64,000 nucleotides of DNA from Minisyncoccota bacterium (GCA_026195275.1 JAPHQU010000001.1:12318-76317), one strand, 5' to 3'. Counted from the first letter of the stretch, positions 3,897-44,621 are shown. Notes: generated by a model from the letters alone, not told the origin. Translations and numbers: made by a program.

Positions 3897-6302
3897 CTAG
3901 ATCTCGCAAGTGCCCGCAAAGCACGCGAGTTCCTTTTTCATCTCAGTCTCATCCTGAAGTTCGTAGGTCATAAGCTTCGAGAAGTCGACGTTCTCAAACT
4001 TCTTAACCATGTCTTCGTATTGTTCTTTTGTGATCTCCTCATACGGTGCGAGTTGGTAGACGAAATTACTTCGCGGGAGGAATGAGAGTCCACCGATGAT
4101 ATCCCAGTTCTCATATACCCAGTTGGCTACCTTAACCCACTCGTCATCCCCAACTGAGATTGTGGTTGACGGATTGTGCTCAGTATAATTTTCTTTCACC
4201 ACCTTCCAGTGTTTGAGCTGGTCAAGTGAGGAGAGGTCATTCTTGAAGACAACACCTTTTGGTGACTTCACCGGGAACTCAAGCACAAACGTGTTTGCGC
4301 TCTCCATGGTCTGCCCCACCTCTGGGTGAAACGGCACCCCTTGATCGCGAAGCATCTTGAAGAGTGAGTCGGTTGCTGAGATTCGAATGCGACGGATGTA
4401 GTATGGTGCGTGGCGCGGGTGCATACCGGACGCACAGTTCACTGTCTGAGAAACTGTTCCTGATGGCTTCACCGCTGTAATCGCGTTTGATGGGTTGACG
4501 CCAAACTTCTTTGAATATTTTTTGTTTACCTTTATTGTCTCTGCTTTGAGTCTTTTGAGTACTGCGTCCTGGCGAACAGTCTTTGAGTCCCACTGCCCCG
4601 TGAGTGACACGCCGAGAAGTCGTTCCGCCTCACAGTTCTCAGTCCACTCCTTTGAGAGATATTGGAACTTTGTGAGTGTTGACTGGTAGGTCCCGAGAAT
4701 GGTTGCCACACGAACCTTTCGGATGAGTGTCTCCTCGGTGTCAGTTGCACGACAGATTACCTCAGAGAGATTACAGAACTGTTTTGACTGCAAGATGATC
4801 TCGCCACACGGGTTAGTCCCTGGGCGATCAATACCGTGTCGCCCGGCGCGATCTGGGTCGTTCTCATATTTGCCTTTAAGATACTCCACGCGGCGCTCAG
4901 GAAGCTGTTTAATCAGGCTACCACGGTTGAAAATACCACGCTCTCCCGCTTGAGACTTCATAAGTGAAAACCATTCCTCCATAAAGTCCATATTTGATGG
5001 CTTCTCTTCATACACTGCCGAGTTATTCGCAAGTGCGCGCTGTGGATCGGTAAGCCAGAATTGCCCAGTCTTTGAGTTTCGAATATTTTCATCATCGAGA
5101 TCAGAGAGCGAAATCATGGCTGAACGACGGACCCCACCAGAAACGATCGCCTCCCCTATCTTACAGAGAATATCGTGTGCATCGATGTTGCGAAGTCGTC
5201 GACCTTGCCGTGAGAGGATACGCTCACGGGTGAAATCAAGAAGCTGACGAAGCGGCTCAGGACCAGACGCCTTACCACCCATGGTCTTGAGGCGTGTGCC
5301 AGACGGGCGCACCTTTGAATAGTCAAAAGAAATATCCTTCCCCTCGAACCATGTCTCCATTCCCAGAACAAGCGCGTCCGCCCACCCTTCCGCTGAGTCG
5401 GGAACAACAAATGCATTCACGGTCTTACCGGTTTGTGGCTTGATCTGTGGTAGCTGCCCCACGTTCCAGCTCTCGACACCAAAGCCAACACCGGCACCAC
5501 GCGACGAGAGGTAGAGCACCTCACCAAAGTCACGAAGTTTAGTTGGTGCAATGTATGAACAGTTGTACGCACAGACGTTACACTTCCGTGCGGCATCTCC
5601 TGCAAATTGCATGAGTCTCATCGAAGGCATCACTTCTTGTTTGAGAATTGTCTCGCGCACCTCCGCATATTCCTTTGCCGAGAGTTTCTTGCCAAGATTC
5701 TCTTTCATAAAGTCCATGTACCGATCAACGGTCTCAATCCATGTCTCGCGCCGACCTTCATCCGCAATCCACTTCGCATATGAACGAAGATACACGAAGT
5801 ATCCAAGTTCGTTACCTTTGAAATATCTTGCACTTTCCGTTGCAAGTTTTTTTACATGCTCAGGGACGACCACACCAAGATCGCGGAGCTTCGCGCGCTC
5901 GGCGCGGTAGAGGATATAGGCCTTCGCGGTCGCCACGTAGTCCCCTAAGATCAACTGACGCTCAACTTCGTCTTGGCAACCTTCAACGGTCGGCATAAAA
6001 TTCTTATATTTTCGCGCAATGCGAACCATATCTGACGCAACACGATGCGCAACCATCGCTGACTCCTCCGGAGACCCTTCCCCGGTAGCGAGCATCGCTT
6101 TGTGAATCGCACCCACGACCTTATCGAACTCAAATGAAACAATTCTGCCGTCCCGTTTCTGGATTTTCGGGATGAATTTTTTATAATCAGCGGCACCTAC
6201 CGCTGTCTTTTTCTTTGTATCGACTTTTGCGTTCATGATTTCATCAATCTTTGCCTGAACCTTGGCATTCTTATCTGTCTTGGCCATATCTAGGATGCTC
6301 AA
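3897..6302 (-). CDS. nrdJ: Ribonucleotide reductase with N-terminal ATP-cone, class II (adenosylcobalamin-dependent, NrdJ-type) suspected
   Basis: 801 aa. ATP-cone at the N-terminus (VQKRDGRIVSFEFDKVVGAIHKAM). Catalytic NPCGEI motif is typical of class II enzymes, whereas class I NrdA carries SNLCxEI. C-terminal Cys pair CFAGTCEI. No nrdB/nrdF partner nearby. The RNR assignment is firm; the class II assignment is moderate. Confidence 0.75.
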   Translation of the reverse strand: MSILDMAKTDKNAKVQAKIDEIMNAKVDTKKKTAVGAADYKKFIPKIQKRDGRIVSFEFDKVVGAIHKAMLATGEGSPEESAMVAHRVASDMVRIARKYKNFMPTVEGCQDEVERQLILGDYVATAKAYILYRAERAKLRDLGVVVPEHVKKLATESARYFKGNELGYFVYLRSYAKWIADEGRRETWIETVDRYMDFMKENLGKKLSAKEYAEVRETILKQEVMPSMRLMQFAGDAARKCNVCAYNCSYIAPTKLRDFGEVLYLSSRGAGVGFGVESWNVGQLPQIKPQTGKTVNAFVVPDSAEGWADALVLGMETWFEGKDISFDYSKVRPSGTRLKTMGGKASGPEPLRQLLDFTRERILSRQGRRLRNIDAHDILCKIGEAIVSGGVRRSAMISLSDLDDENIRNSKTGQFWLTDPQRALANNSAVYEEKPSNMDFMEEWFSLMKSQAGERGIFNRGSLIKQLPERRVEYLKGKYENDPDRAGRHGIDRPGTNPCGEIILQSKQFCNLSEVICRATDTEETLIRKVRVATILGTYQSTLTKFQYLSKEWTENCEAERLLGVSLTGQWDSKTVRQDAVLKRLKAETIKVNKKYSKKFGVNPSNAITAVKPSGTVSQTVNCASGMHPRHAPYYIRRIRISATDSLFKMLRDQGVPFHPEVGQTMESANTFVLEFPVKSPKGVVFKNDLSSLDQLKHWKVVKENYTEHNPSTTISVGDDEWVKVANWVYENWDIIGGLSFLPRSNFVYQLAPYEEITKEQYEDMVKKFENVDFSKLMTYELQDETEMKKELACFAGTCEI

Positions 6303-8636: not shown

Positions 8637-8673
8637 GTGTAATTTTCTTACACACTATGCGCGTTCCCGCCCA

Positions 8674-8761
8674 TGGCGGAGGAGACAGGATTCGAACCTG
8701 CGATACCTTGCGGTATACCCGCTTTCCAAGCGAGCGCATTCGACCACTCTGCCACTCCTCC
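8674..8761 (-). tRNA. tRNA-Ser (anticodon GGA), long variable arm
   Basis: Minus-strand read: GGAGGAGTGGCAGAGTGGTCGAATGCGCTCGCTTGGAAAGCGGGTATACCGCAAGGTATCGCAGGTTCGAATCCTGTCTCCTCCGCCA. The 7-bp acceptor pairs perfectly. Anticodon stem CTCGC/GCGGG with loop TTGGAAA gives anticodon GGA. Long variable arm, T-loop GGTTCGAATCC, CCA encoded. Confidence 0.8.
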
Positions 8762-8862
8762 GCCATGGGCGGGATCATGATTTACCTTACAATCGCTTCG
8801 CTCTTGTGTAAATCGAGAATAATCTTCTTACACCTTCAATAGCGCGACCATCTCTCTAAGCC

Positions 8863-35626: not shown

Positions 35627-37099
35627 CTACTCTGCTCTTCCTTGAGTGATGTTGAGTGCTGGTCTATACAAGAATGGGATCCAAAATGTAGGTGTATCTT
35701 TATTTCCTCTTTTCTCAAAAAAACCCACGTTTGTTAGTTTTATTGCAATCTTTTCTGTTTCATCATCATCTACGCTCCATATCTTCTTTAAAGTAGCTAG
35801 GGTATGCTCCGCTTTCTCGCCTTCAAGTTTTTCTATGTAAGGTTTTGATTTTGGAAATTCAGCATATAGAGTCTGATGAAGTCTGGTTCGAGAGACTTGA
35901 GGCAATGCTTCTTTCACTGAAGTCCTACTAAATAATGGTTCTTTATCCTCACTAGCTTGCCCCATTTCGAAACTCCTTGTTTCTTCCTCTCTGATTTGAT
36001 TAAGCAACTGAATAAGCTCCCTGGGGGCTACAGTATCTGTCCCATCGGTGCATCTCGTTACCATCCACTTGAAAGTTTCAGGTTTTTTGGGTCCCAGGTC
36101 CACTTGTTTGGGGAAGATTCTATAAAATAACTCTTGTTGCTTTGTATAATCAGACAATACATCATTTGGATTAACCCCAAAATATTCACTAATCTGAGGA
36201 TTGATGAGTATTCGACGCATTATCAAATTCAATAACTTTGCTTCACTCCAGTCAATGGTCACGTGTCGTGTAATATGGCTTGCTTCTCTGAAGCCTTGTT
36301 CAGTAATCCTTTTCCATATATCGGTGCGAAGAAAGATTTTAAGTTTTATGCTTTCTGCACTGAGTAAACTTAGGTAACAATGAAACAATGCTCGAAGCGC
36401 ATTTTCTTCAAGATTATGGTTCTCCTTAAACGCGACATCTAATCTGTCAATTGCAATCCAGACTATAAGATTTTCCATCCTTAATGCCTGATTGGCGTAA
36501 GTGATGAGTTGGTCGATAGATATATTAACCTTTGAATCGTCCGTAGGATCACCTTCAAGAGATGCTTTGCCAACACATGAGACCATTCCCGTATTAGGGT
36601 CAAATGTTAACATTCCTTCTAGCGATTGAAGTTTTCGTTTATTGATAAAGTCTAGAATTCTCGAAATCAAAGTCTTCTTATCTTGCTCTAAAAAGCCGGC
36701 CCTCCTCAACACTGCTGTAAGTTCATTCGCAGGGTTATTCTTAACTTTTGCTTCTTGTAAGAAAAGACCAACCAAAGAAACGAAGTAAAGTTTCCAGAGT
36801 GACTGGAAATCTACCTCACTTGTAGGTGGTTTTATCTCAATATTTTGAAATGCCGTGTCTCCTCGTGGATTTTCAGCGGATATAATAGAGGCCTCTTCTA
36901 TCTTGTCGTTCTTTTCAAGCAACAGAGTGTAAAGAGCGCTCTTTCCTGAACCTTTATGGCCGTAGACAATATCAATCTCTCCTGCAATAACTCGATTCCA
37001 CTGATCTGTTTCCACAAAATATTTTGAGAGGTCGCTGCTCTCGCTTTCGGCTACCCCTTCACCAAATCTTAATGACTTAACTAGTTCGCTTCTTTCCAT
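35627..37099 (-). CDS. P-loop NTPase of unknown function, encoded directly downstream of the R-M pair
   Basis: Walker A IVYGHKGSGKSALYTLL. Candidate Walker B LIVWIAIDRLD. 490 aa, no TM, no nuclease motif recognised. AT-rich codon usage like the neighbouring R-M genes. Confidence 0.6.
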   Translation of the reverse strand: MERSELVKSLRFGEGVAESESSDLSKYFVETDQWNRVIAGEIDIVYGHKGSGKSALYTLLLEKNDKIEEASIISAENPRGDTAFQNIEIKPPTSEVDFQSLWKLYFVSLVGLFLQEAKVKNNPANELTAVLRRAGFLEQDKKTLISRILDFINKRKLQSLEGMLTFDPNTGMVSCVGKASLEGDPTDDSKVNISIDQLITYANQALRMENLIVWIAIDRLDVAFKENHNLEENALRALFHCYLSLLSAESIKLKIFLRTDIWKRITEQGFREASHITRHVTIDWSEAKLLNLIMRRILINPQISEYFGVNPNDVLSDYTKQQELFYRIFPKQVDLGPKKPETFKWMVTRCTDGTDTVAPRELIQLLNQIREEETRSFEMGQASEDKEPLFSRTSVKEALPQVSRTRLHQTLYAEFPKSKPYIEKLEGEKAEHTLATLKKIWSVDDDETEKIAIKLTNVGFFEKRGNKDTPTFWIPFLYRPALNITQGRAE

Positions 37100-37256
37100 T
37101 TCTACATAATATACTTAATTTCATGGATTAACCACCTGTATTATTGGTATCCTTTCTAGAAAATCTGTAGTTTTATTACCTCTTAAATCCCCTTCTTCAT
37201 GTTTCTCTGGATCTGTTCCACCCCACACTCCCAAAATACATAAACCTTCCAGTCGG

Positions 37257-38576
37257 CTATGCTTCGTACTCGTCGACATACTTGATGAGGTTCTTCCCTA
37301 TCTTGGCGATAATACCCGTCACCAAAGCATTACCGATGAAGAATGCTCGTGTGTTGTCAGACACAGGGCCATTCACTCCCTCTGCGGTGTGATTATCTGG
37401 GAACATGCTCAGCCGCTCTAACTCGACCGGAGTGAGCCTCCTCATCTTCCCACTTTGAGGAGATTGTACCACATGCTTGAAACGTGAAGGTCCACTACCG
37501 CCCTCGCCCGTAACAACTGTCCGAGACGGTTTGTCCAATGAGTCGGGAAATGACATGCCACCTTCCGAGAAAACATACGATTCACCGGTGTGTTTATTAA
37601 CACGCTCTATCTTCTTTGCGCCTTTCTGCTTCTTCCATTTCTTTATGACCTCTTTGTCGTCTATGAAATATTCCTCACCAACCTCCTTGTCGGCAAGCAG
37701 CACATCCCCAAGAACCACGGTCGTCTTTGCTGGTTTGGGTGTGACCTTTGCAGTATATACATCACCGTTTATCATCACACCCGCATTATGAAAAGGTGAC
37801 ACCTTCAAACCGCGCCCAAAATGATCTGATATCTGTTTCTCGTCTTCGTGTAGGAGTATCTCGTTGAGCTCATGTTCTTGAACACGCTTGATTGGGAATG
37901 CTTTACCAAAGACGCCCTCATGCAACCACCTAAGATGCCCCTTTGAACGCATTTGTTTTGCTATACCACTATTGTTCTTGTAGGCAAGGATGAATATCCT
38001 TCTTCGGCGCTGCGGGAAACCATGGTCAGCCGCATTGATAACACGCCACTCAACGTCATACCCAAGAGTCTCAAGGGAGCGAAGCATAACAGCAAAGTCG
38101 CGACCCCGCTGTGTCCCCGGTGACTTCAGCAAACGGTCGACATTCTCGAGGAGTAGTATCTTTGGGGCTTTGCGACCGCGCTTCTCCTGTAACTGCTGCA
38201 CAAGCGACACAATCGACCACCACAAGACCCCTTTCTTCCCAATAATGCCGGCCGACTGTCGAAGTGGCTTTGCTACAGAATAGTCTTGGCATGGGAAACC
38301 ACCAACAAGAATGTCGTGATCAGGAACCGAATCTATATGATACTTCACAACCTCTTCGATGTTGGTGTTGGTATGCAAAAGGTTCTCCACGCCCCAATTC
38401 TTTGAATACACATCATGAGCGTGCTGTTGTTTCTTGCCGGGCTCCCACTGATTGAACCAAACTGTCTCAAAGCGATTCCGTGACGCCTTCTCAAAGCCGA
38501 CACGAAATCCACCAACTCCCGCAAAGAGTTCTGCCACGCGCAATTTATTGTCGGACATTCCAGGCTTTTTCTTCAT
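37257..38576 (-). CDS. DNA (cytosine-5)-methyltransferase
   Basis: Motif I ELFAGVGGFRVGF (FxGxGG). Motif IV GGFPCQDYS (PCQ). Motif VI ENV (LLENVDRLL). C-terminal GNAL (motif X). Confidence 0.9.
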   Translation of the reverse strand: MKKKPGMSDNKLRVAELFAGVGGFRVGFEKASRNRFETVWFNQWEPGKKQQHAHDVYSKNWGVENLLHTNTNIEEVVKYHIDSVPDHDILVGGFPCQDYSVAKPLRQSAGIIGKKGVLWWSIVSLVQQLQEKRGRKAPKILLLENVDRLLKSPGTQRGRDFAVMLRSLETLGYDVEWRVINAADHGFPQRRRRIFILAYKNNSGIAKQMRSKGHLRWLHEGVFGKAFPIKRVQEHELNEILLHEDEKQISDHFGRGLKVSPFHNAGVMINGDVYTAKVTPKPAKTTVVLGDVLLADKEVGEEYFIDDKEVIKKWKKQKGAKKIERVNKHTGESYVFSEGGMSFPDSLDKPSRTVVTGEGGSGPSRFKHVVQSPQSGKMRRLTPVELERLSMFPDNHTAEGVNGPVSDNTRAFFIGNALVTGIIAKIGKNLIKYVDEYEA

Positions 38577-38606
38577 GCCCCTATTCTACCAAGCAGAGAA
38601 AAAAGA

Positions 38607-40133
38607 TCAATCTTGATCTTTGTCGTTTTCTATTGCATGCTGAATATATTTGGCATTGAGCCAGAATCCTTGTTTTGTAAAGGTTTTCCAGCCAGTGAGC
38701 TGGTCAGGGACCGGTAGCTCATTTGTTATACCCCTGTTTGTGGTGTGAGGGCGCACGTGCGCTACACCATTGAAGGTGCTACCTGGAAAATGATTATATA
38801 TTCTCCCGTCGGCTTTTTGGGGGACTTTCTTTATTATTTTCCCTTCATTCAGCAACTCAATAGTCTTCTCCCAAGTCTCCCGCGCCTTACCCATGTCTTC
38901 CGCAGGGAAATTCCAGAACATTGTCTTTTGCAAGATAATCTCATCAGATTCTTCTTGTTTCTGGAAAACAACAAAGAGGAACTTTTTCTCTTCAAGTTGT
39001 GCATGAAAATCACTCATTTGCTCTGCTTCTTCGTCATACCACACTTGTGTAACGAGGTCTTTGAAATTAAATGCCGGGAAAGAAACAGACTCTTTTAGGG
39101 AGCCGTCCGGTTCTAGCGCCAACACCTTCAGCGTCACATCTGCTTTCTCAAGCTCCTCTACCTTGTTTGACCCTGTGCCCGTAAGGATATGGTTAGCTAT
39201 GAGTCGTTTGTAATTCTTTGGTTTCACTTTTGGCTTCCATTTAAGCATCTTGAGAATCTCGGTATCAGTCTTTCCGATGAATTTCCTAAATCTATCTTCG
39301 ACAACCTGGTCGATAGTTTTCGTCTTTGGTGCTCCTTTATATATAGAAACCTCGTCTGGAGAGACCCCGAGCAGCTTCGTCTGTATAAGATAATTCAGGT
39401 ACGCCTGCTTCAAAGAAAACGCGCGTGGCTTTGCTGGAATGCGCGATTTTGGCTGGTCGCGAACCACACGGCTGTGCGCCGCTTTTGTACACGCACCAAG
39501 ATAGAATGTATCGCCTTCAGATAGCTCGTGCGCCTTACCGTCCCGAATCTTGTCGACAATGCACTCCCAGTCCTTCTTGATTTGCACAACATCCTCTTGA
39601 GAAAGCCCTTCGAGTAGATCGAGAAAATGTACGAACTTGAATTTATAATCCAAAAGACTTGCTTCTTTCAGCCAAAGATAAAAGATGAGCAGGAGGAAGC
39701 GGTTCTTCTTGAGAAAAGAGCTGGTCTCCCACTTTTCGCTAATCACTGTGTCGTAATTAATCATAGAGAAGACGAGACGCTCCTTCGAAACAAACCGCTT
39801 CTTGTTGTGCTTCTTTAGCGGGGTTGCTTTAAGCTCAACATTTGCAACTTTGAAGTCCGCCTCCGCTCTACCATTATTCTCTAGGTCAAACACATATTGC
39901 TCAACAAGGTCACCAAAAAAACCCTTTCGGCGGGTTCCGTATTTCCCGAGCTGTTTCTCAATATCATCTGCTTCCTCTTTCGACACAATATCTCGAAGAG
40001 TCTTCCCTAGGACTGCTTCTGCTGCTGTTATGACATCTTCTGCTGTCTGATACTGTGTGTCTTGCATACTTAGATTTATACACCAATCATAGGACACTCG
40101 TCCAACCACCTCTTGAGACGATGACGTGGTCAA
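38607..40133 (-). CDS. Sau3AI/MutH-family type II restriction endonuclease (predicted GATC-type)
   Basis: 508 aa, size like R.Sau3AI. N-terminal MutH-like catalytic motif GRAEADFKVANVELKATP (D...E-x-K), which parallels the MutH D70...E77-L-K79 block and resembles the MutH/Sau3AI PDFxxLGVELKTIP block as recalled from memory. Adjacent and co-oriented with an m5C MTase, as in the Sau3AI system. The start may be the internal Met at 40067. Confidence 0.6.
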   Translation of the reverse strand: MTTSSSQEVVGRVSYDWCINLSMQDTQYQTAEDVITAAEAVLGKTLRDIVSKEEADDIEKQLGKYGTRRKGFFGDLVEQYVFDLENNGRAEADFKVANVELKATPLKKHNKKRFVSKERLVFSMINYDTVISEKWETSSFLKKNRFLLLIFYLWLKEASLLDYKFKFVHFLDLLEGLSQEDVVQIKKDWECIVDKIRDGKAHELSEGDTFYLGACTKAAHSRVVRDQPKSRIPAKPRAFSLKQAYLNYLIQTKLLGVSPDEVSIYKGAPKTKTIDQVVEDRFRKFIGKTDTEILKMLKWKPKVKPKNYKRLIANHILTGTGSNKVEELEKADVTLKVLALEPDGSLKESVSFPAFNFKDLVTQVWYDEEAEQMSDFHAQLEEKKFLFVVFQKQEESDEIILQKTMFWNFPAEDMGKARETWEKTIELLNEGKIIKKVPQKADGRIYNHFPGSTFNGVAHVRPHTTNRGITNELPVPDQLTGWKTFTKQGFWLNAKYIQHAIENDKDQD

Positions 40134-40731
40134 TAAGGTCTATGCCAAGCAGCTTACTCGCGTGCTGAAGTTGTTTTGTAATCTCAACATCCTCATGCGA
40201 ACACTCACTGTCCCCCGACGGGTGGTTGTGAGCGACAATAATTGAGGCGGCTGAGTGACGGAGGGCGGGTTCAAAGACCTCGCGCGGGTGAACTAGGCTG
40301 GCGTCAAGTGTCCCGATTGAGATGATTTCACGTGCAATGAGCGCGCCGCGTGAGTTGCAATAGAACGCCACAAAATGCTCTTTACGAGAGTTGCGAAAGT
40401 CTGCGCAGAGCTCAAAGACCTTTTCGGGAGTCATAACAACTTCATCTTTGGCCGCATGCTGCCTGCGACCATACTCAAGAGCAGCGAGCACTTGTCCTGC
40501 TTTGACCATACCAAGACCTTTGATTGAAGTGAGGTCTTTAATAGTGAGACTCTCAAGACCAACTTCCTCCACCTTATTCACAATCTTCTTTGCAAGCTGC
40601 ACAACATTTGTGCCTTGCGTGCCCGAACCAAGCACAATAGCGAGCAGTTCGTGATTGGTTAATTTACCAACCCCATAGCGTGCAAGCTTCTCACGTGGTC
40701 GCGCGTACTTGGGCGCATCTTTCATCTTCAT
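40087..40731 (-). CDS. radC: RadC-like JAB/MPN domain protein
   Basis: N-terminal HhH region (GVGKLTNHELLAIVLGSG). C-terminal JAMM motif HNHPSGDSECSHEDVEITKQL. Confidence 0.85.
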   Translation of the reverse strand: MKMKDAPKYARPREKLARYGVGKLTNHELLAIVLGSGTQGTNVVQLAKKIVNKVEEVGLESLTIKDLTSIKGLGMVKAGQVLAALEYGRRQHAAKDEVVMTPEKVFELCADFRNSRKEHFVAFYCNSRGALIAREIISIGTLDASLVHPREVFEPALRHSAASIIVAHNHPSGDSECSHEDVEITKQLQHASKLLGIDLIDHVIVSRGGWTSVL

Positions 40732-40781
40732 ACTCTAAATAATATCAGATAACCTGCTAAAACATTGTCACCTATTGGGAA

Positions 40782-40815
40782 AAATAAACGCCACACACGT
40801 GTGAGGCGTTTATTT
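40782..40815. terminator. Hairpin aaataaacgcc-acacacgtgtgag-gcgtttattt
   Basis: Inverted repeat with A/T flanks downstream of radC. The stem is related to the 33655 hairpin. Confidence 0.5.
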
Positions 40816-40848
40816 TGCCTGCCTGTCGGCAAACTGAGATGAAATCGG

Positions 40849-41091
40849 TTAGTTTCCCTGTATCAGAGCAAGTTTCTTGGTGCGCGTCAGCTTCTTGATC
40901 TCCGCTTCGCGCTTGAGCGCGGACGATCTGTCGGCGCACTCTTCGGTGTAGACAATGCTCCCTGCTCCTTTTGCGCGCGTGTAGTTGGAACCGGTGCCGT
41001 CCTTGTGTTGCGCGAGCCTGCGCTTGAGGTCAGTGGTAATGCCGGTATAGAGCGTGCTGTCGTTACATTCAAGAATATAGAGGAAATACAT
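40849..41091 (-). CDS. GIY-YIG nuclease-domain protein (YhbQ-like, 80 aa)
   Basis: MYFLYILECNDSTLYTGITTDLKRRLAQH has the GIY...YIG and R, E core. Confidence 0.75.
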   Translation of the reverse strand: MYFLYILECNDSTLYTGITTDLKRRLAQHKDGTGSNYTRAKGAGSIVYTEECADRSSALKREAEIKKLTRTKKLALIQGN

Positions 41092-41298
41092 ATATCATGC
41101 ACCTTGGCTACACGCCTCGGTACTAGAAAATTCTAAAGTGCTACAGCACTAAGAATTTTTGCTAGCTGGCCGAGTCGAGCCAGAACCGTGGTCGGTCAAG
41201 TCCCGTAAGGTTATTTCTAACTATTTTATTTTACCAATTCGACGGATCTCGAGCACCTCTATTCCAAAATAAATTTTAAAAGACGTTTATAAAATCTA

Positions 41299-42192
41299 TT
41301 ATTCTCCCTTAGTGTCTTTTGTTTTATCCTCGTCTTTCTTTTGTTCAGCCGCTTCTTTCTTTGCTTCGCCAAGGCTGCGTAGACTTTTTATGGTGTCCTC
41401 ACACGGAGCAATAGATGTAATCATACTAACTCCCGGTAACGAGTCCCCTGAGCTTCTCCGATTCGGTATGTAAGCAGTGATTACACCTGCTATTTTTGGT
41501 CTATTTGAGTTAGCATCTATATAAAAAACTGGTCCACCACTAACACCATTAATCGCGACACCATCTATTAGGTAGTCCCCTGAAATATGGCAACTAATAA
41601 ACCCGTGAAAGAAACATAATTGACCACTCATTAACCCAGGGTAACCACACCAGGCAACATCAACACCAGGCACAAGATAGCTACCTGAAGGTATTAATTC
41701 AATTTGAGTTTTTGGAAGGTTAAATTTTTTCGGCTTCACAAAAAGCATAACGGCTAGATCTTTTTTGGGATAAGTAAATACCGCTCGATCTTTTTCTTTA
41801 AGTAAAATTTCTTCTCCAGTAGCCTCATGTACAACCTTTATGGGTTCGCCCCATTCATGGACCCCGTCAACAACGTGATAGGCTGTAGCAATTGCACATA
41901 AATTATCATTGGTGCCAAAATTTCCTATATGGAATCCGGTGCCGTGGCCCCTTGGAGTATTCAATTTAACTACTCTATCATTTACTAGTCTCAAAGCTCC
42001 TTGCCATGTCAAAGCAATTTTTTTAGGTATTTGTGGCTGTAAAGGTTTCCTAACTGCTTTTTTAGTTGTTTTCTTTACGGTCTTCTTAGCAGTTGTCTTT
42101 CTTTTTGTTGTTCTTCTCTTTGCTGGTGCCTTCTTTGCTGCTTTTTTAGTTGTTTTCTTTTGTGCTTTTGCCATGATTTCATTATATCGCAA
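41299..42192 (-). CDS. Trypsin-like serine protease with histone-H1-like Lys/Thr-rich N-terminal tail
   Basis: N-terminal about 55 aa are AKAQKKTTKKAAKKAPAKRRTTKRKTTAKKTVKKTTKKAVRK. Protease domain with His (ATAYHVVDG) and Ser (GVSGGPVF, GDSGGP-like) motifs. Confidence 0.7.
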   Translation of the reverse strand: MRYNEIMAKAQKKTTKKAAKKAPAKRRTTKRKTTAKKTVKKTTKKAVRKPLQPQIPKKIALTWQGALRLVNDRVVKLNTPRGHGTGFHIGNFGTNDNLCAIATAYHVVDGVHEWGEPIKVVHEATGEEILLKEKDRAVFTYPKKDLAVMLFVKPKKFNLPKTQIELIPSGSYLVPGVDVAWCGYPGLMSGQLCFFHGFISCHISGDYLIDGVAINGVSGGPVFYIDANSNRPKIAGVITAYIPNRRSSGDSLPGVSMITSIAPCEDTIKSLRSLGEAKKEAAEQKKDEDKTKDTKGE

Positions 42193-42274
42193 CCATCATA
42201 TTTATATAGCAAGTTGCCTACAACGCTCTCTGAGCGCACGAGGTCGCTACGCGACTTGAGCTAGCTCTAACGGG

Positions 42275-42325
42275 CTGCCCGGCAGGGAATCGAACCCCGA
42301 TTTTTGGTGCCAGAAACCAACGTCC
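42275..42325 (-). other. tRNA-Gln(CTG)-like 3' fragment (positions about 22-73 only)
   Basis: Minus-strand GGACG-TTGGT-TTCTGGC-ACCAA-AAAT-CGGGG-TTCGATT-CCCTG-CCGGGCA-G has an intact anticodon arm (CTG), T arm and 3' acceptor strand. No matching 5' acceptor or D-stem lies upstream. Confidence 0.45.
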
Positions 42326-42376
42326 TATAAGTGAGCGAGTGAGCGTCATAAACAAGTGAATATTTCCCGCTCAAAG

Positions 42377-42447
42377 CTGCCGGACTTGGACTCGAACCAA
42401 GATTAACTGGACCAGAACCAGTCGTCCTACCATTAGACGATCCGGCA
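42377..42447 (-). tRNA. tRNA-Gln (anticodon CTG)
   Basis: Minus-strand TGCCGGA-TC-GTCT-AATGGTA-GGAC-G-ACTGG-TTCTGGT-CCAGT-TAAT-CTTGG-TTCGAGT-CCAAG-TCCGGCA-G. All stems pair and U1-A72 is present as in bacterial tRNA-Gln. CCA not encoded. Confidence 0.75.
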
Positions 42448-42510
42448 GCTTTGAGCACGAAGCGGGTGTATGAAGTTATTTATGACCGAGCGATCGAAAC
42501 TTATATAGTT

Positions 42511-42534
42511 TCTATACCGTTAGACGACCAGGCA
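42511..42534 (-). other. tRNA-Gln-like 5' fragment (acceptor 5' strand plus D arm, positions about 1-21)
   Basis: Minus-strand TGCCTGG-TC-GTCT-AACGGTA then diverges. Near-identical to the 5' end of the complete tRNA-Gln. Its acceptor 5' strand would pair (one G-U) with the 3' strand of the fragment at 42275-42325. Confidence 0.4.
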
Positions 42535-42623
42535 ATTTTTCTAAAGAATCCTAAAGAAAAAGCGCTACCAAGCGCATAGCTATAGTAGCACATTTTTTCT
42601 TTTTGTTGAGCCCCCTGATTCGC

Positions 42624-42899
42624 CTAGCTACGCTCCTTCTTGAAACAGTCGAGGCACTTGAGGTTGCCGGTGTCACGTGGCTGGAATGGAAGCTCGGTGA
42701 TCGCTCCTCCGCAGCCGGCGCATTTCCAGTCGCCCTTGTGCATGGTGCGCTCGGCACGAGGTGTGTCATTTCCACCATTTCCACCAGCTCCTTTGGCGAA
42801 GCATGACTTGCATTTCAAACCTGCGGTGTTCCGCGGCTCGAATGGAAGCTCGGTGATCGCTCCTCCACATCCACTACATGTCCAATTTCCTTGATGCAT
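42624..42899 (-). CDS. Small protein with two tandem CxxC...CxxC zinc-ribbon repeats
   Basis: MHQGNWTCSGCGGAITELPFEPRNTAGLKCKSCF / MHKGDWKCAGCGGAITELPFQPRDTGNLKCLDCF is an internal duplication of about 40 aa, each copy with four Cys. Chosen over the overlapping plus-strand ORF 42640-42894 because of the repeat and Cys conservation. Confidence 0.5.
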   Translation of the reverse strand: MHQGNWTCSGCGGAITELPFEPRNTAGLKCKSCFAKGAGGNGGNDTPRAERTMHKGDWKCAGCGGAITELPFQPRDTGNLKCLDCFKKERS

Positions 42900-42941: not shown

Positions 42942-44621
42942 TTATTTGCGCTTCGTGCGTTTTGCTCCCTTTTTCTTATCACCCATTGCCGTCTTAATAA
43001 ACGCGGTGAAGAGCGGGTGCGGATCAAGTGGACGCGCCAGAAACTCCGGGTGAAACTGCGTCCCGAGGAAGAACGGGTGGAGACTCGAAGGAAGCTCGGC
43101 AATCTCCATAAGCCGCTTGTCCGGTGAGACACCCGAGAAGACAAGGTCGCGCGAGGCGAGCTCTTCGGCATACTCCGGGTTCACCTCGTAGCGGTGACGG
43201 TGTCGCTCGTGGGCAATCTCTGTGCCATACGCGCGACGCGCGATAGTGCCCTTCTTGAGATATGCCGGGTAGGTGCCGAGGCGCATAGTGCCGCCGTAGT
43301 CTGCCTTGGCGAGCTTTTTCTTCTGGTCGGGCATGATATCGATAACCAGACTCTCTCCTTTCGGATCAATCTCGGCGGTCTGAGCGTTTTTTATACCAAG
43401 CACATTGCGCGCGTACTCGATCACCAAGAGCTGCATGCCGTAGCAGAGTCCAAAGTACGGGATCTTGTTTTCGCGCACATACTCAATCACATTAAGCTTG
43501 CCTTCTATTCCAGACTCGCCGAAGCCACCCGGCACAATAACACCGTCATACTTTTTGAGTTCCGTAAGCTTGCGCTTGTTCTTCTCAAAGTCACGCGAGT
43601 TGAGCCAGTGAATGTCTGGTGTTGCGCCGAGCTTGTAGGCGGAATACTTGATCGCTTCGATAACCGAGATGTACGAGTCCGAGAGCGTAAAATCGCCCGT
43701 GCCAAAATACTTGCCGACGATTGCGATCTTAACCGGGTGCGAGGTCCCCTTCACCTTCTTTACAAAATTTTTCCAGCTGGTGAGGTTGGTCTTCTTTACG
43801 CGCTCACGAAGCCCGAGTTTCTCGACGAGGATGTGCCCGAGATTGTCGCGCTCGAAGTTGATCGGCACATCATACACACTCTCAATGTCGGGGGCTGAGA
43901 TAACATCCTCGGTGCGCATACTGCACGAGACCGCAATCTTTTCTTTGCGCCGTTTATCAAGCGGAACCTCCGAGCGCGCAATCACCACATCGGGTTGCAC
44001 GCCGTACGAATAGAGTTGGCGAATGGCGTTCTGGGTCGGGCGCGTCTTCATCTCACCGAGCTTGCCGGGGATCGGGAGGTAAGAAACCATTACAAAAATA
44101 ACATTGTCCGGGTGCATCATCCGCATGACGCGCCCCGCCTCGAAGAAAAGTGAGTTTTGAAAATCGCCGATGGTGCCGCCAATCTCAATGACCGAGATCT
44201 CGGATCCATTTACATCAGCTGCCGCCTGAATGCGGCGGACGATCTCATCGCGAATGTGTGGGATCGCCTCAACACACTTGCCGCCATAGCCTAAGTTACG
44301 CTCCTTCTCGATCACGTGCTTGTAGACCATGCCGCTGGTGATGTAGTTCTCTTCGCCGAGGCTCTTGCCTAAGAAACGCTCGTAGTTGCCCATATCCTGG
44401 TCGGTCTCAAGGCCGCTCTCAAGCACAAACGCTTCGCCATGCTCGGTCGGGTTCATGGTGCCGGCGTCCACATTGAGGTACGGGTCGACTTTGACGAGGT
44501 TCACATTAAAACCCCTCGATTGGAGGATTTTTCCTATCGAGGATGTGGCGATACCTTTCCCGACACCAGACATGACTCCCCCGACAACGAAAATATACTT
44601 GTGATCCTTCTTTTTTGGCAT
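42942..44621 (-). CDS. pyrG: CTP synthase PyrG
   Basis: MPKKKDHKYIFVVGGVMSGVGKG. GATase C-terminal domain with GLCYGMQ. Lys-rich C-terminal tail. Confidence 0.95.
   Translation of the reverse strand: MPKKKDHKYIFVVGGVMSGVGKGIATSSIGKILQSRGFNVNLVKVDPYLNVDAGTMNPTEHGEAFVLESGLETDQDMGNYERFLGKSLGEENYITSGMVYKHVIEKERNLGYGGKCVEAIPHIRDEIVRRIQAAADVNGSEISVIEIGGTIGDFQNSLFFEAGRVMRMMHPDNVIFVMVSYLPIPGKLGEMKTRPTQNAIRQLYSYGVQPDVVIARSEVPLDKRRKEKIAVSCSMRTEDVISAPDIESVYDVPINFERDNLGHILVEKLGLRERVKKTNLTSWKNFVKKVKGTSHPVKIAIVGKYFGTGDFTLSDSYISVIEAIKYSAYKLGATPDIHWLNSRDFEKNKRKLTELKKYDGVIVPGGFGESGIEGKLNVIEYVRENKIPYFGLCYGMQLLVIEYARNVLGIKNAQTAEIDPKGESLVIDIMPDQKKKLAKADYGGTMRLGTYPAYLKKGTIARRAYGTEIAHERHRHRYEVNPEYAEELASRDLVFSGVSPDKRLMEIAELPSSLHPFFLGTQFHPEFLARPLDPHPLFTAFIKTAMGDKKKGAKRTKRK

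Follow-up and report, generated by a model that had tools for sequence, protein, structure and literature searches.

How does a bacterium come to have a tRNA gene cut in two, and what is a second, complete tRNA gene doing in the gap? The question is raised by a glutamine tRNA (tRNA-Gln) locus in a 64,000-nucleotide (nt) stretch of DNA from a Minisyncoccota bacterium, which is referred to here as the window. Coordinates are those of the window unless a related locus is named, and the features of the tRNA-Gln locus are all read on its minus strand. A preliminary description of the locus had offered several explanations, among them a split tRNA, the insertion of a tRNA-bearing mini-element, the decay of tandem genes and the scars of an integration event. 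We class it as a mobile insertion into a tRNA gene, one that would restore the function it disrupts. The broader reading, which we consider probable, is that a mobile cassette targets tRNA-Gln and supplies its own replacement, and that the outer gene is a recently killed pseudogene. The argument rests on the insertion and its empty site, on the identity of both tRNAs with intact genes of relatives, on covariation in a helix that clamps the inner tRNA, and on the nesting and layering of such tRNA genes in relatives.

The arrangement around 42000-42800 can be read directly. A Zn-ribbon gene (42624-42899; Pfam zf_Tbcl_2), itself downstream of pyrG (42942-44621), ends here, and after it come a GC hairpin and T-run (42562-42575), the 5' piece of a tRNA-Gln(CUG), an insert and the 3' piece. 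The outer 5' piece (TGCCTGGTCGTCTAACGGTA, 42515-42534) consists of the acceptor 5' strand, the D-stem 5' strand and the D loop up to A21. It had been described as 24 nt long; the fragment itself stands, but its length is 20 nt, covering tRNA positions 1-21. It is placed where the tRNA of relatives begins, directly after the conserved hairpin and T-run. The outer 3' piece (GGACGTTGGTTTCTGGCACCAAAAATCGGGGTTCGATTCCCTGCCGGGCAG, GGAC...GGGCAG, 42275-42325) is indeed, as first described, a 51-nt fragment with a CTG anticodon arm; read directly, it contains the D-stem 3' strand from G22, the anticodon arm, the T arm, the acceptor 3' strand and the discriminator base, and it gives a partial Rfam tRNA match of 20.4 bits. 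The interruption between them, put at about 185 nt by the preliminary description, was refined to 189 nt (42326-42514), and is a cassette made up of a left arm, a complete tRNA-Gln and a right arm. ARAGORN and Rfam (58.8 bits) agree that the inner tRNA-Gln(CTG) at 42377-42447 is complete, as had been claimed. The T arm is CUUGGUUCGAGUCCAAG in the inner tRNA-Gln and CGGGGUUCGAUUCCCUG in the outer (O-type) one.

The two cassette arms form an imperfect inverted repeat, and only 67 + 51 nt (118 nt) of the cassette is not tRNA. The 189 base pairs (bp) contain no open reading frame (ORF), and a promoter/terminator scan of 42100-42750 returned nothing informative. There is a 2-nt ambiguity in the boundaries of the insertion, because the insert has TA at either end, beside the target GGTA/GGAC (the slash marks the break), and this flanking TA could be a TA target duplication or microhomology. 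The extreme ends of the cassette (TAGAAAC... and ...CACTTA) are not inverted copies of each other, though the arms overall are inverted repeats. At the left end is a small hairpin (GAAACT-ATATA-AGTTTC, 42496-42512), and several other cassettes of the same family likewise start with a hairpin (L001, L087, L090 and L093; related loci are cited by such numbers). A degenerate pattern for the 20-nt 5' end, allowing up to 3 mismatches, has only two matches in the 64 kb, both in this locus (expected, 0.02), and there is no further tRNA-Gln end copy anywhere in the window.

Are the two outer pieces really one gene? The preliminary description had proposed that a single tRNA-Gln gene was interrupted between positions 21 and 22 by a complete tRNA-Gln, and that orthologous loci might contain an empty site. 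The window's pyrG protein puts it among the Paceibacteria/Kaiserbacteria-like bacteria of the candidate phyla radiation (CPR), and both tRNA-Gln sequences of the locus begin with U1-A72, the bacterial type. The order pyrG, Zn-ribbon gene, tRNA-Gln(CTG) is common to many relatives, and therefore the tRNA-Gln locus is orthologous across the group. One of these relatives, L082 (a 617-kb contig with a pyrG that is 80% identical), has an uninterrupted tRNA-Gln(CTG) at 5653-5724, after the equivalent hairpin and T-run. The outer 5' piece is identical to positions 1-20 of this intact gene and the outer 3' piece to its 3' 51 nt, through the discriminator base; removal of 42326-42514 from the window leaves a gene that is identical to it at 72 of 72 positions. 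The upstream flank of L082 and about 110 nt of its downstream flank also align with the window, with many substitutions and gaps. Since the joined pieces match completely and the flanks are homologous, L082 is the empty site and the outer pieces of the window are a single resident gene, in which a break between A21 and G22 has neither removed nor added a base. Both alleles, the filled one of the window and the empty one of L082, exist at one site of a homologous target gene, and the uninterrupted allele bears out the interruption first proposed.

The inner tRNA has intact relatives of its own. It is identical to the sole tRNA-Gln at the locus in L081, the nearest relative (pyrG 90% identical), where there are no tRNA fragments and no clamp, and it is also identical to the tRNA-Gln of L085. 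Inner and outer tRNAs differ at about 17 positions, all of which are compensated in the stems. As a separate observation, L084 (5797-5868) and L085 (3302-3373) have an identical pyrG protein and identical upstream DNA, and their tRNA-Gln genes differ from about position 25 onward, as does the DNA downstream; by sequence, this looks like allele replacement within one species. Of the other pyrG relatives, P0017 and P0015 lack a tRNA-Gln at this position, and no clamp-type cassette is present in P0020 or P0021; an exact look-up of the window's Zn-ribbon protein, which might have revealed other strains, returned no record.

The outer gene has 0 changes in 72 positions from its L082 counterpart, while the intergenic flanks are clearly diverged. 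If a flank divergence of about 25-30% is assumed, judged by eye from the alignment, a rough neutral estimate would date the insertion to approximately the final quarter of the period since the window and L082 diverged. An insertion this recent fits the condition of L081, which has no outer gene altogether.

The complete tRNA was also said at first to be embedded in a 16-bp extended leader/trailer helix, and both an inverted repeat (I1) and the predicted fold agree with this. The helix (gctcaaagcTGCCGGA / TCCGGCAgctttgagc) is continuous through 7 acceptor pairs and 9 leader/trailer pairs, including C-1:G73, and the arms of I1 are 21 nt long and 90% complementary. Its leader strand (GCTCAAAGC, 42448-42456) pairs with the discriminator base and the trailer, and its trailer strand (GCTTTGAGC, 42369-42377) includes the discriminator G73. 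Further imperfect arms extend this clamp: a second 18-nt pair, the distal left arm (GTCATAAATAACTTCATA, 42469-42486) and the distal right arm (TATTCACTTGTTTATGAC, 42345-42362), forms inverted repeat I2, is 78% complementary and is paired in the minimum free energy (MFE) fold. That fold, computed for 42270-42540, has an energy of -94.7 kcal/mol (z = -4.6), and none of 200 shuffled sequences folds as well. In it the outer acceptor halves are paired, the arms are zipped into a long hairpin and the inner cloverleaf sits at the tip.

The clamp recurs in relatives with different sequences. The leader and trailer of L001 and L083 are complementary (CCGTTGTTTGTGAATAAAGC / GCTTTGAGCRCAAACAGGCG), and other examples, from a metagenome scan for an AAAGC leader, are TCTCTCCAAAGC/GCTTTGGAGAGA and GTCTCTAAAGC/GCTTTAGAGAG; at the scan loci that have a complete tRNA, the trailer always pairs with the leader well beyond AAAGC, and the sequences vary by locus. 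A GCTTTG(A/G) trailer is common to all of the family cassettes. Covariation was measured in an ungapped alignment of 10 cassettes, which is a modest sample since several rows are related. Changes on both sides were present in 9 of the 16 pairs, and 85.6% of the cells were paired; 0 of 500 shuffles reached the observed values, and sliding the partners abolished the signal. G-U pairs outnumber A-C mismatches 14 to 3, an excess that favours pairing in an RNA of tRNA sense over a pure DNA inverted repeat. Such a helix was present at only 11 tRNA-Gln genes and 1 tRNA-Ser gene among the 131 distinct tRNA genes of the fetched sequences; about 119 of the 131 are without it, and so are 22 simple tRNA-Gln genes.

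The lone clamp that does not belong to a tRNA-Gln is also in the window, around a tRNA-Ser GGA gene (8677-8761, minus strand) that has a 13-bp helix, CCCGCCCATGGC / tRNA / GCCATGGGCGGG. This gene is flanked by a direct repeat with 14 of 15 positions matching (GTGTAAGAAGATTAT, 8819-8833, and GTGTAAGAAAATTAC, 8639-8653), and no tRNA-Ser fragments were seen near it.

Is the window locus a single accident, or one of a family? The clamped tRNA-Gln family includes 11 loci, and at least 8 of them (the window, L001, L083, L087, L088, L090, L092 and L093) have a clamp-type tRNA-Gln within older tRNA-Gln remnants, which are 5' fragments, 3' fragments or both. An unbiased search anchored on pyrG yielded L001 and L083; L087, L088, L090, L092 and L093 came from the AAAGC-leader scan of metagenomes, which asked only for that leader and a tRNA 5' end and returned 10 loci, 8 of them distinct. 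The order in L001 and L083 is a hairpin, a 5' tRNA-Gln fragment, a spacer, a complete clamped tRNA-Gln and a 3' fragment, and L001 is present in identical form in three more contigs from other samples (L097, L098 and L099).

Several members have more than one layer of remnants. In L092, for example, the complete gene is followed by three 3' ends in succession, of which one has a cassette-type trailer (GCTTTGGAT) and another an encoded CCA. L088 has three 3' pieces, among them a 3' fragment that is broken in the T loop by 55 nt and is followed by a further 3' end. On the minus strand of L091 a clamp-type tRNA-Gln is truncated at about position 31, and roughly 90 nt apart from it is a second, complete clamp-type tRNA-Gln with a different clamp (GGCTAAGC / GCTTAGTC); judged from its sequence, this looks like a cassette inserted into a cassette. 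Three loci (the window, L090 and L092) agree in the start of the 3' remnant, which is TA/GG(AC) at tRNA position 22. The D stem that the 5' and 3' remnants of L090 make between them (ATCT/GGAT) is unlike that of the inner gene; these remnants, too, are two halves of one older allele. Mismatched stems, insertions or an internal deletion mark the outer halves of L001, L083, L088, L090 and L092, a pattern which indicates that the old gene decays once it is split.

A second type of mini-insertion was also noticed in the relatives, in which a complete tRNA-Gln is followed, after 85-190 nt, by a direct copy of the sequence from the T loop to the 3' end (L002:6825-7020, L018:5326-5500, L036:7364-7530, L057:5941-6100, L084:5869-6030, L113:4946-5055, and in L090 downstream of the 3' fragment). 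At their left end, several of these carry the T arm again in inverted orientation, and a GC-rich core (GAACGSCGGAGC...GAGCCGGTGMCCAGCCC...GAGAGGCGAGGGCGATTCCAAG) is common to L030, L036 and L057. Neither the cassette arms nor these downstream mini-elements matched an Rfam family at gathering or permissive thresholds; the only matches were tRNAs and noise.

Could the outer pieces still be a working tRNA? In that case the entire unit would be transcribed, the inner tRNA would be released by RNase P and 3' processing, and the outer pieces, held together by the leader/trailer arms and perhaps ligated, would serve as a second tRNA-Gln(CUG), a bacterial counterpart of the archaeal split and intron-containing tRNAs. 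All four outer stems are intact, the outer sequence has kept its identity to the functional allele while the flanks diverged, the insert is self-complementary from end to end, so that its fold joins the outer halves, and the covariation of the clamp is of the RNA type. Yet a recent insertion accounts for the intact outer sequence just as well, and the decay, deletion or interruption of the outer halves in L001, L083, L088, L090 and L092 means that there has been no lasting selection on them. Pairing of the arms from end to end is not general either, since the left arms are far longer than the right ones in L001, L090 and L092. No bulge-helix-bulge motif is seen at the junctions in the MFE fold, a statement about that fold since no dedicated search for the motif was run, and bacteria are not known to have the archaeal tRNA splicing endonuclease. 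We consider a functional split tRNA, one of the possibilities raised at the outset, to be improbable.

The fragments might instead be att-site scars, that is, displaced tRNA parts left by an integrase at the edge of a neighbouring accessory region. There is such a region: from 35627 to 42192 the window has a lower GC content (0.42-0.46) and a gene content unlike that downstream of the tRNA-Gln in L081 and L082. It includes a trypsin-like protease with a Lys-rich N-terminus, a GIY-YIG ORF, RadC, an ATPase without a Pfam match and a restriction-modification pair (a MutH/Sau3AI-like endonuclease and a C5 cytosine methylase). Classical-looking direct repeats from the T loop to the 3' end also occur 85-190 nt downstream in L002, L018, L036, L057, L084 and L113, and scars of this kind therefore do occur at this tRNA in relatives. 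Integration of the att type leaves the crossover segment in two copies; in the window, the fragments do not overlap and TA is all that is repeated. The break falls in the D loop, away from the anticodon loop, T loop and 3' end, and what has been inserted is an entire tRNA plus arms that are not tRNA. Ten of the largest ORFs between 30.7 and 42.9 kb were scanned against Pfam and include no integrase and no tyrosine or serine recombinase, and these 12 kb without an integrase, together with the lack of another tRNA-Gln end copy in 64 kb, also count against scars. We give this explanation little credence for the window.

The decay of three tandem tRNA-Gln genes, with loss of the 3' two-thirds from the first and of the 5' third from the last, can draw on L001, where the 3' fragment and trailer (GCTTTGAGYRCAAACARGCGATAG) resemble a tandem copy of the inner 3' part and trailer. 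In the window it would need two deletions with exactly complementary ends and no base lost or duplicated: the halves add up to an intact gene without loss or overlap. The outer pieces are also one allele, identical to that of L082 and with about 17 differences from the inner gene, and an intact single gene of the outer type is at the orthologous site in L082. The empty site and the complementary halves effectively refute a decayed triplication here, and we regard it as very improbable. An assembly chimera of two strains with different tRNA-Gln alleles is scarcely credible: allele swapping within a species exists, as in L084 and L085 (a shared pyrG protein and different tRNA-Gln 3' parts), but the alleles share no exact match longer than 8-9 nt, which is not enough to bridge an assembly graph, neither allele contains the 118 nt of the arms, and the architecture was assembled independently from different samples with different assemblers (L001 = L098, plus L097 and L099).

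The explanation that fits the empty site and the family pattern is the insertion of a tRNA-bearing mini-element into a tRNA gene, one of those first listed. We picture it as follows. The cassette would be a self-contained replacement gene, and its inner tRNA-Gln(CUG), the usual one of the clade, is presumed to be the functional gene, while the outer halves would be a freshly inactivated pseudogene. In the transcript, the clamp may isolate the inner tRNA, so that the near-identical 5' piece of the outer gene does not mispair with it, and the clamp probably marks the inner tRNA for excision from a longer transcript. Cassettes of the family have repeatedly inserted into whichever tRNA-Gln is present, leaving nested 5' and 3' remnants, and successive invasions would yield the layered tRNA remnants of the relatives. 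The outer halves may serve as homology arms for spread by a homing-like gene conversion, and a cut by a GIY-YIG nuclease in the D-arm region of an intact tRNA-Gln gene may initiate it. The window copy would be a derivative without an ORF.

The suggestion of a nuclease comes from three loci, L058, L090 and L092, none of which was selected for a GIY-YIG ORF, and in all of which a GIY-YIG ORF of about 80 amino acids lies between the 5' tRNA-Gln fragment and the complete tRNA-Gln. L090 and L092, two longer members of the family, are of the clamp type, with the ORF in the left arm; L058 has an equivalent layout but an unclamped tRNA-Gln. The window also has a UPF0213-type GIY-YIG ORF (40849-41091, minus strand; Pfam GIY-YIG, 1.8e-19; PDB 1zg2 and 1ywl, both UPF0213), which belongs to the same family as the ORFs of L058, L090 and L092 and is located 1.3 kb downstream of the tRNA-Gln, outside the cassette. 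Its homology with L081:4496-4738 begins at the ATG and ends at the stop, and the flanks are unrelated; in both genomes the ORF is about 1.28 kb downstream of the tRNA-Gln, and the intervening genes differ. Homology confined to the ORF is as expected for a mobile ORF. The window ORF is a possible trans-acting partner of the cassette, and its membership in the element is uncertain. Compared with NCBIfam, the cassette ORFs have sub-threshold similarity to group I intron endonucleases only. A 2006 survey described prokaryotic Slx1-like GIY-YIG domains fused to the tRNA Gm18 methyltransferase TrmH (PMC1564403); this fusion is a lead toward D-loop recognition and is not evidence for it. Whether all of this amounts to a distinct homing-type element, an invader of the tRNA-Gln D loop with a clamped replacement tRNA and an autonomous form driven by a UPF0213 GIY-YIG protein, is a tentative proposal that we consider rather unlikely as it stands. 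A bolder extension is that the freshly split outer halves may still work as a two-piece tRNA.

Two features of the ORFs were noted in passing. Those of L090 and L092 have no stop before the tRNA and read into it (...KELVSKA/AGSSNGRT...), the end of the ORF being the clamp leader strand, and that of L092 also has an in-frame TAA.

Several points weigh against a mobile, self-replacing cassette. UPF0213 proteins are only about 80 amino acids long, with no known DNA-binding domain and no demonstrated homing activity or specificity, and the window cassette has no endonuclease ORF. A nuclease that recognised the D-arm region of tRNA-Gln should also see the inner copy. The intact outer gene, with its 0 changes in 72 positions, fits a recent insertion but also fits continued selection. 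L089 is of the clamp type and has no remnants, and L086 ends at a contig edge. The break points of the L001 group are at about positions 24 and 29, which is not a clean insertion between 21 and 22, and the inner trailer is present a second time, on the 3' fragment; the loci of this group have undergone additional rearrangement. Finally, blastn against the window and loci L001-L095 found no second copy of either arm and no donor, and so the mobility of the exact 189-bp unit rests on the empty site and the family pattern. Judged as a miniature transposon (MITE), the cassette likewise lacks multiple copies, neither arm recurring in the 64-kb window or in loci L001-L095. Scans of viral contigs for the cassette leader with tRNA, the outer T arm and the cassette GIY-YIG protein gave nothing relevant; the inner 5' end had a single viral match, in a phage tRNA cluster that is unrelated (L100).

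Are there known systems that resemble such cassettes? Integrative elements of the att type, such as phages and islands, integrate within tRNA genes and make good the damage with a copy of the displaced part that they carry. The comparison with them rests on general knowledge of att systems. Like these elements, the cassettes insert inside a tRNA gene, function is kept by tRNA sequence that the insert carries, fragments of the old gene remain and one tRNA is hit repeatedly. Unlike them, the insert of the window brings a whole tRNA gene and not the displaced 3' part, duplicates only TA, uses a site in the D loop and, at only 189 bp, has no integrase.

The disrupted tRNA genes of archaea also come to mind. 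At the tRNA-Thr locus of Caldiarchaeum a mobile element left a 5' fragment (Sugahara 2012, PMC3293823), and the window shares with the archaeal genes an interruption outside the anticodon loop, a 5' fragment upstream of the working copy and the implication of a mobile element; the leader/trailer helix of the clamp also recalls the complementary leaders of archaeal split tRNA halves. The differences are that the host is a bacterium (U1-A72, Patescibacteria neighbours) with no bulge-helix-bulge seen and no known splicing machinery, that the interruption carries its own tRNA and that the outer halves decay in relatives.

Closer in taxonomy are the group I introns in Patescibacteria tRNA genes, which are located in the anticodon loop (e.g. 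35/36), are self-splicing and in some cases are linked to homing endonucleases (PMC13011429). The phylum is the same, and in both cases an insertion within a tRNA gene neutralises its own damage. The cassette differs in having no ribozyme match, 118 nt of non-tRNA sequence, a D-loop site and a replacement gene instead of splicing. A group I intron as such was rejected for the window: a permissive Rfam scan of 42100-42700 (E up to 10) found tRNA and noise and no ribozyme core, and the non-tRNA sequence amounts to 67 + 51 nt.

Free-standing GIY-YIG homing endonuclease genes are known near tRNA genes, for example SegB of phage T4 (PMC2330249). The cassettes and SegB have in common a GIY-YIG ORF beside or within tRNA gene DNA, a presence/absence polymorphism and homology that ends at the ORF borders. 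They differ in that the UPF0213 proteins of about 80 amino acids have no demonstrated endonuclease specificity, and that the window ORF is 1.3 kb away, outside the cassette.

Two other observations concern the neighbourhood of the locus. Between the Zn-ribbon gene and the tRNA-Gln (42553-42613, minus strand) there is a TGTGGTATAAA-like box followed by a GCGC...GCGC hairpin and the T-run, and this box and hairpin are conserved at the equivalent position in L001, L002 and L081-L085; the element has a weak match to an Rfam PyrG_leader-like sequence, 19.3 bits and far below threshold, though it is downstream of pyrG. Just upstream of the window GIY-YIG ORF, ACGGTTCTGGCTCGACTCGGCCAGC (41165-41189, minus strand) resembles a tRNA-Gln 3' fragment with an internal deletion like that of L083, which leaves the anticodon loop directly next to the 3' end. 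If this resemblance is real, the protease gene at 41299-42192 would sit between tRNA-Gln remnants.

Our literature searches turned up no account of one tRNA gene nested within another, or of cassettes in CPR bacteria that combine GIY-YIG with tRNA-Gln, and a family of self-replacing tRNA cassettes is apparently undescribed. Two ways are known for selfish DNA to occupy an essential RNA gene, self-splicing introns and att-type partial duplication; bringing a spare copy would be a third. A bacterial tRNA gene that is cleanly split in the D loop, with a matching empty allele, is also a starting point for considering the origins of split and intron-containing tRNAs. On the practical side, tRNA annotation of these genomes will miss or miscount nested loci. 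The finding points to a testable role for the widespread small GIY-YIG proteins of UPF0213 which, if true, would be the first function of an orphan family, and the covarying leader/trailer clamp on the pre-tRNAs suggests that CPR bacteria have an unusual route of tRNA processing.

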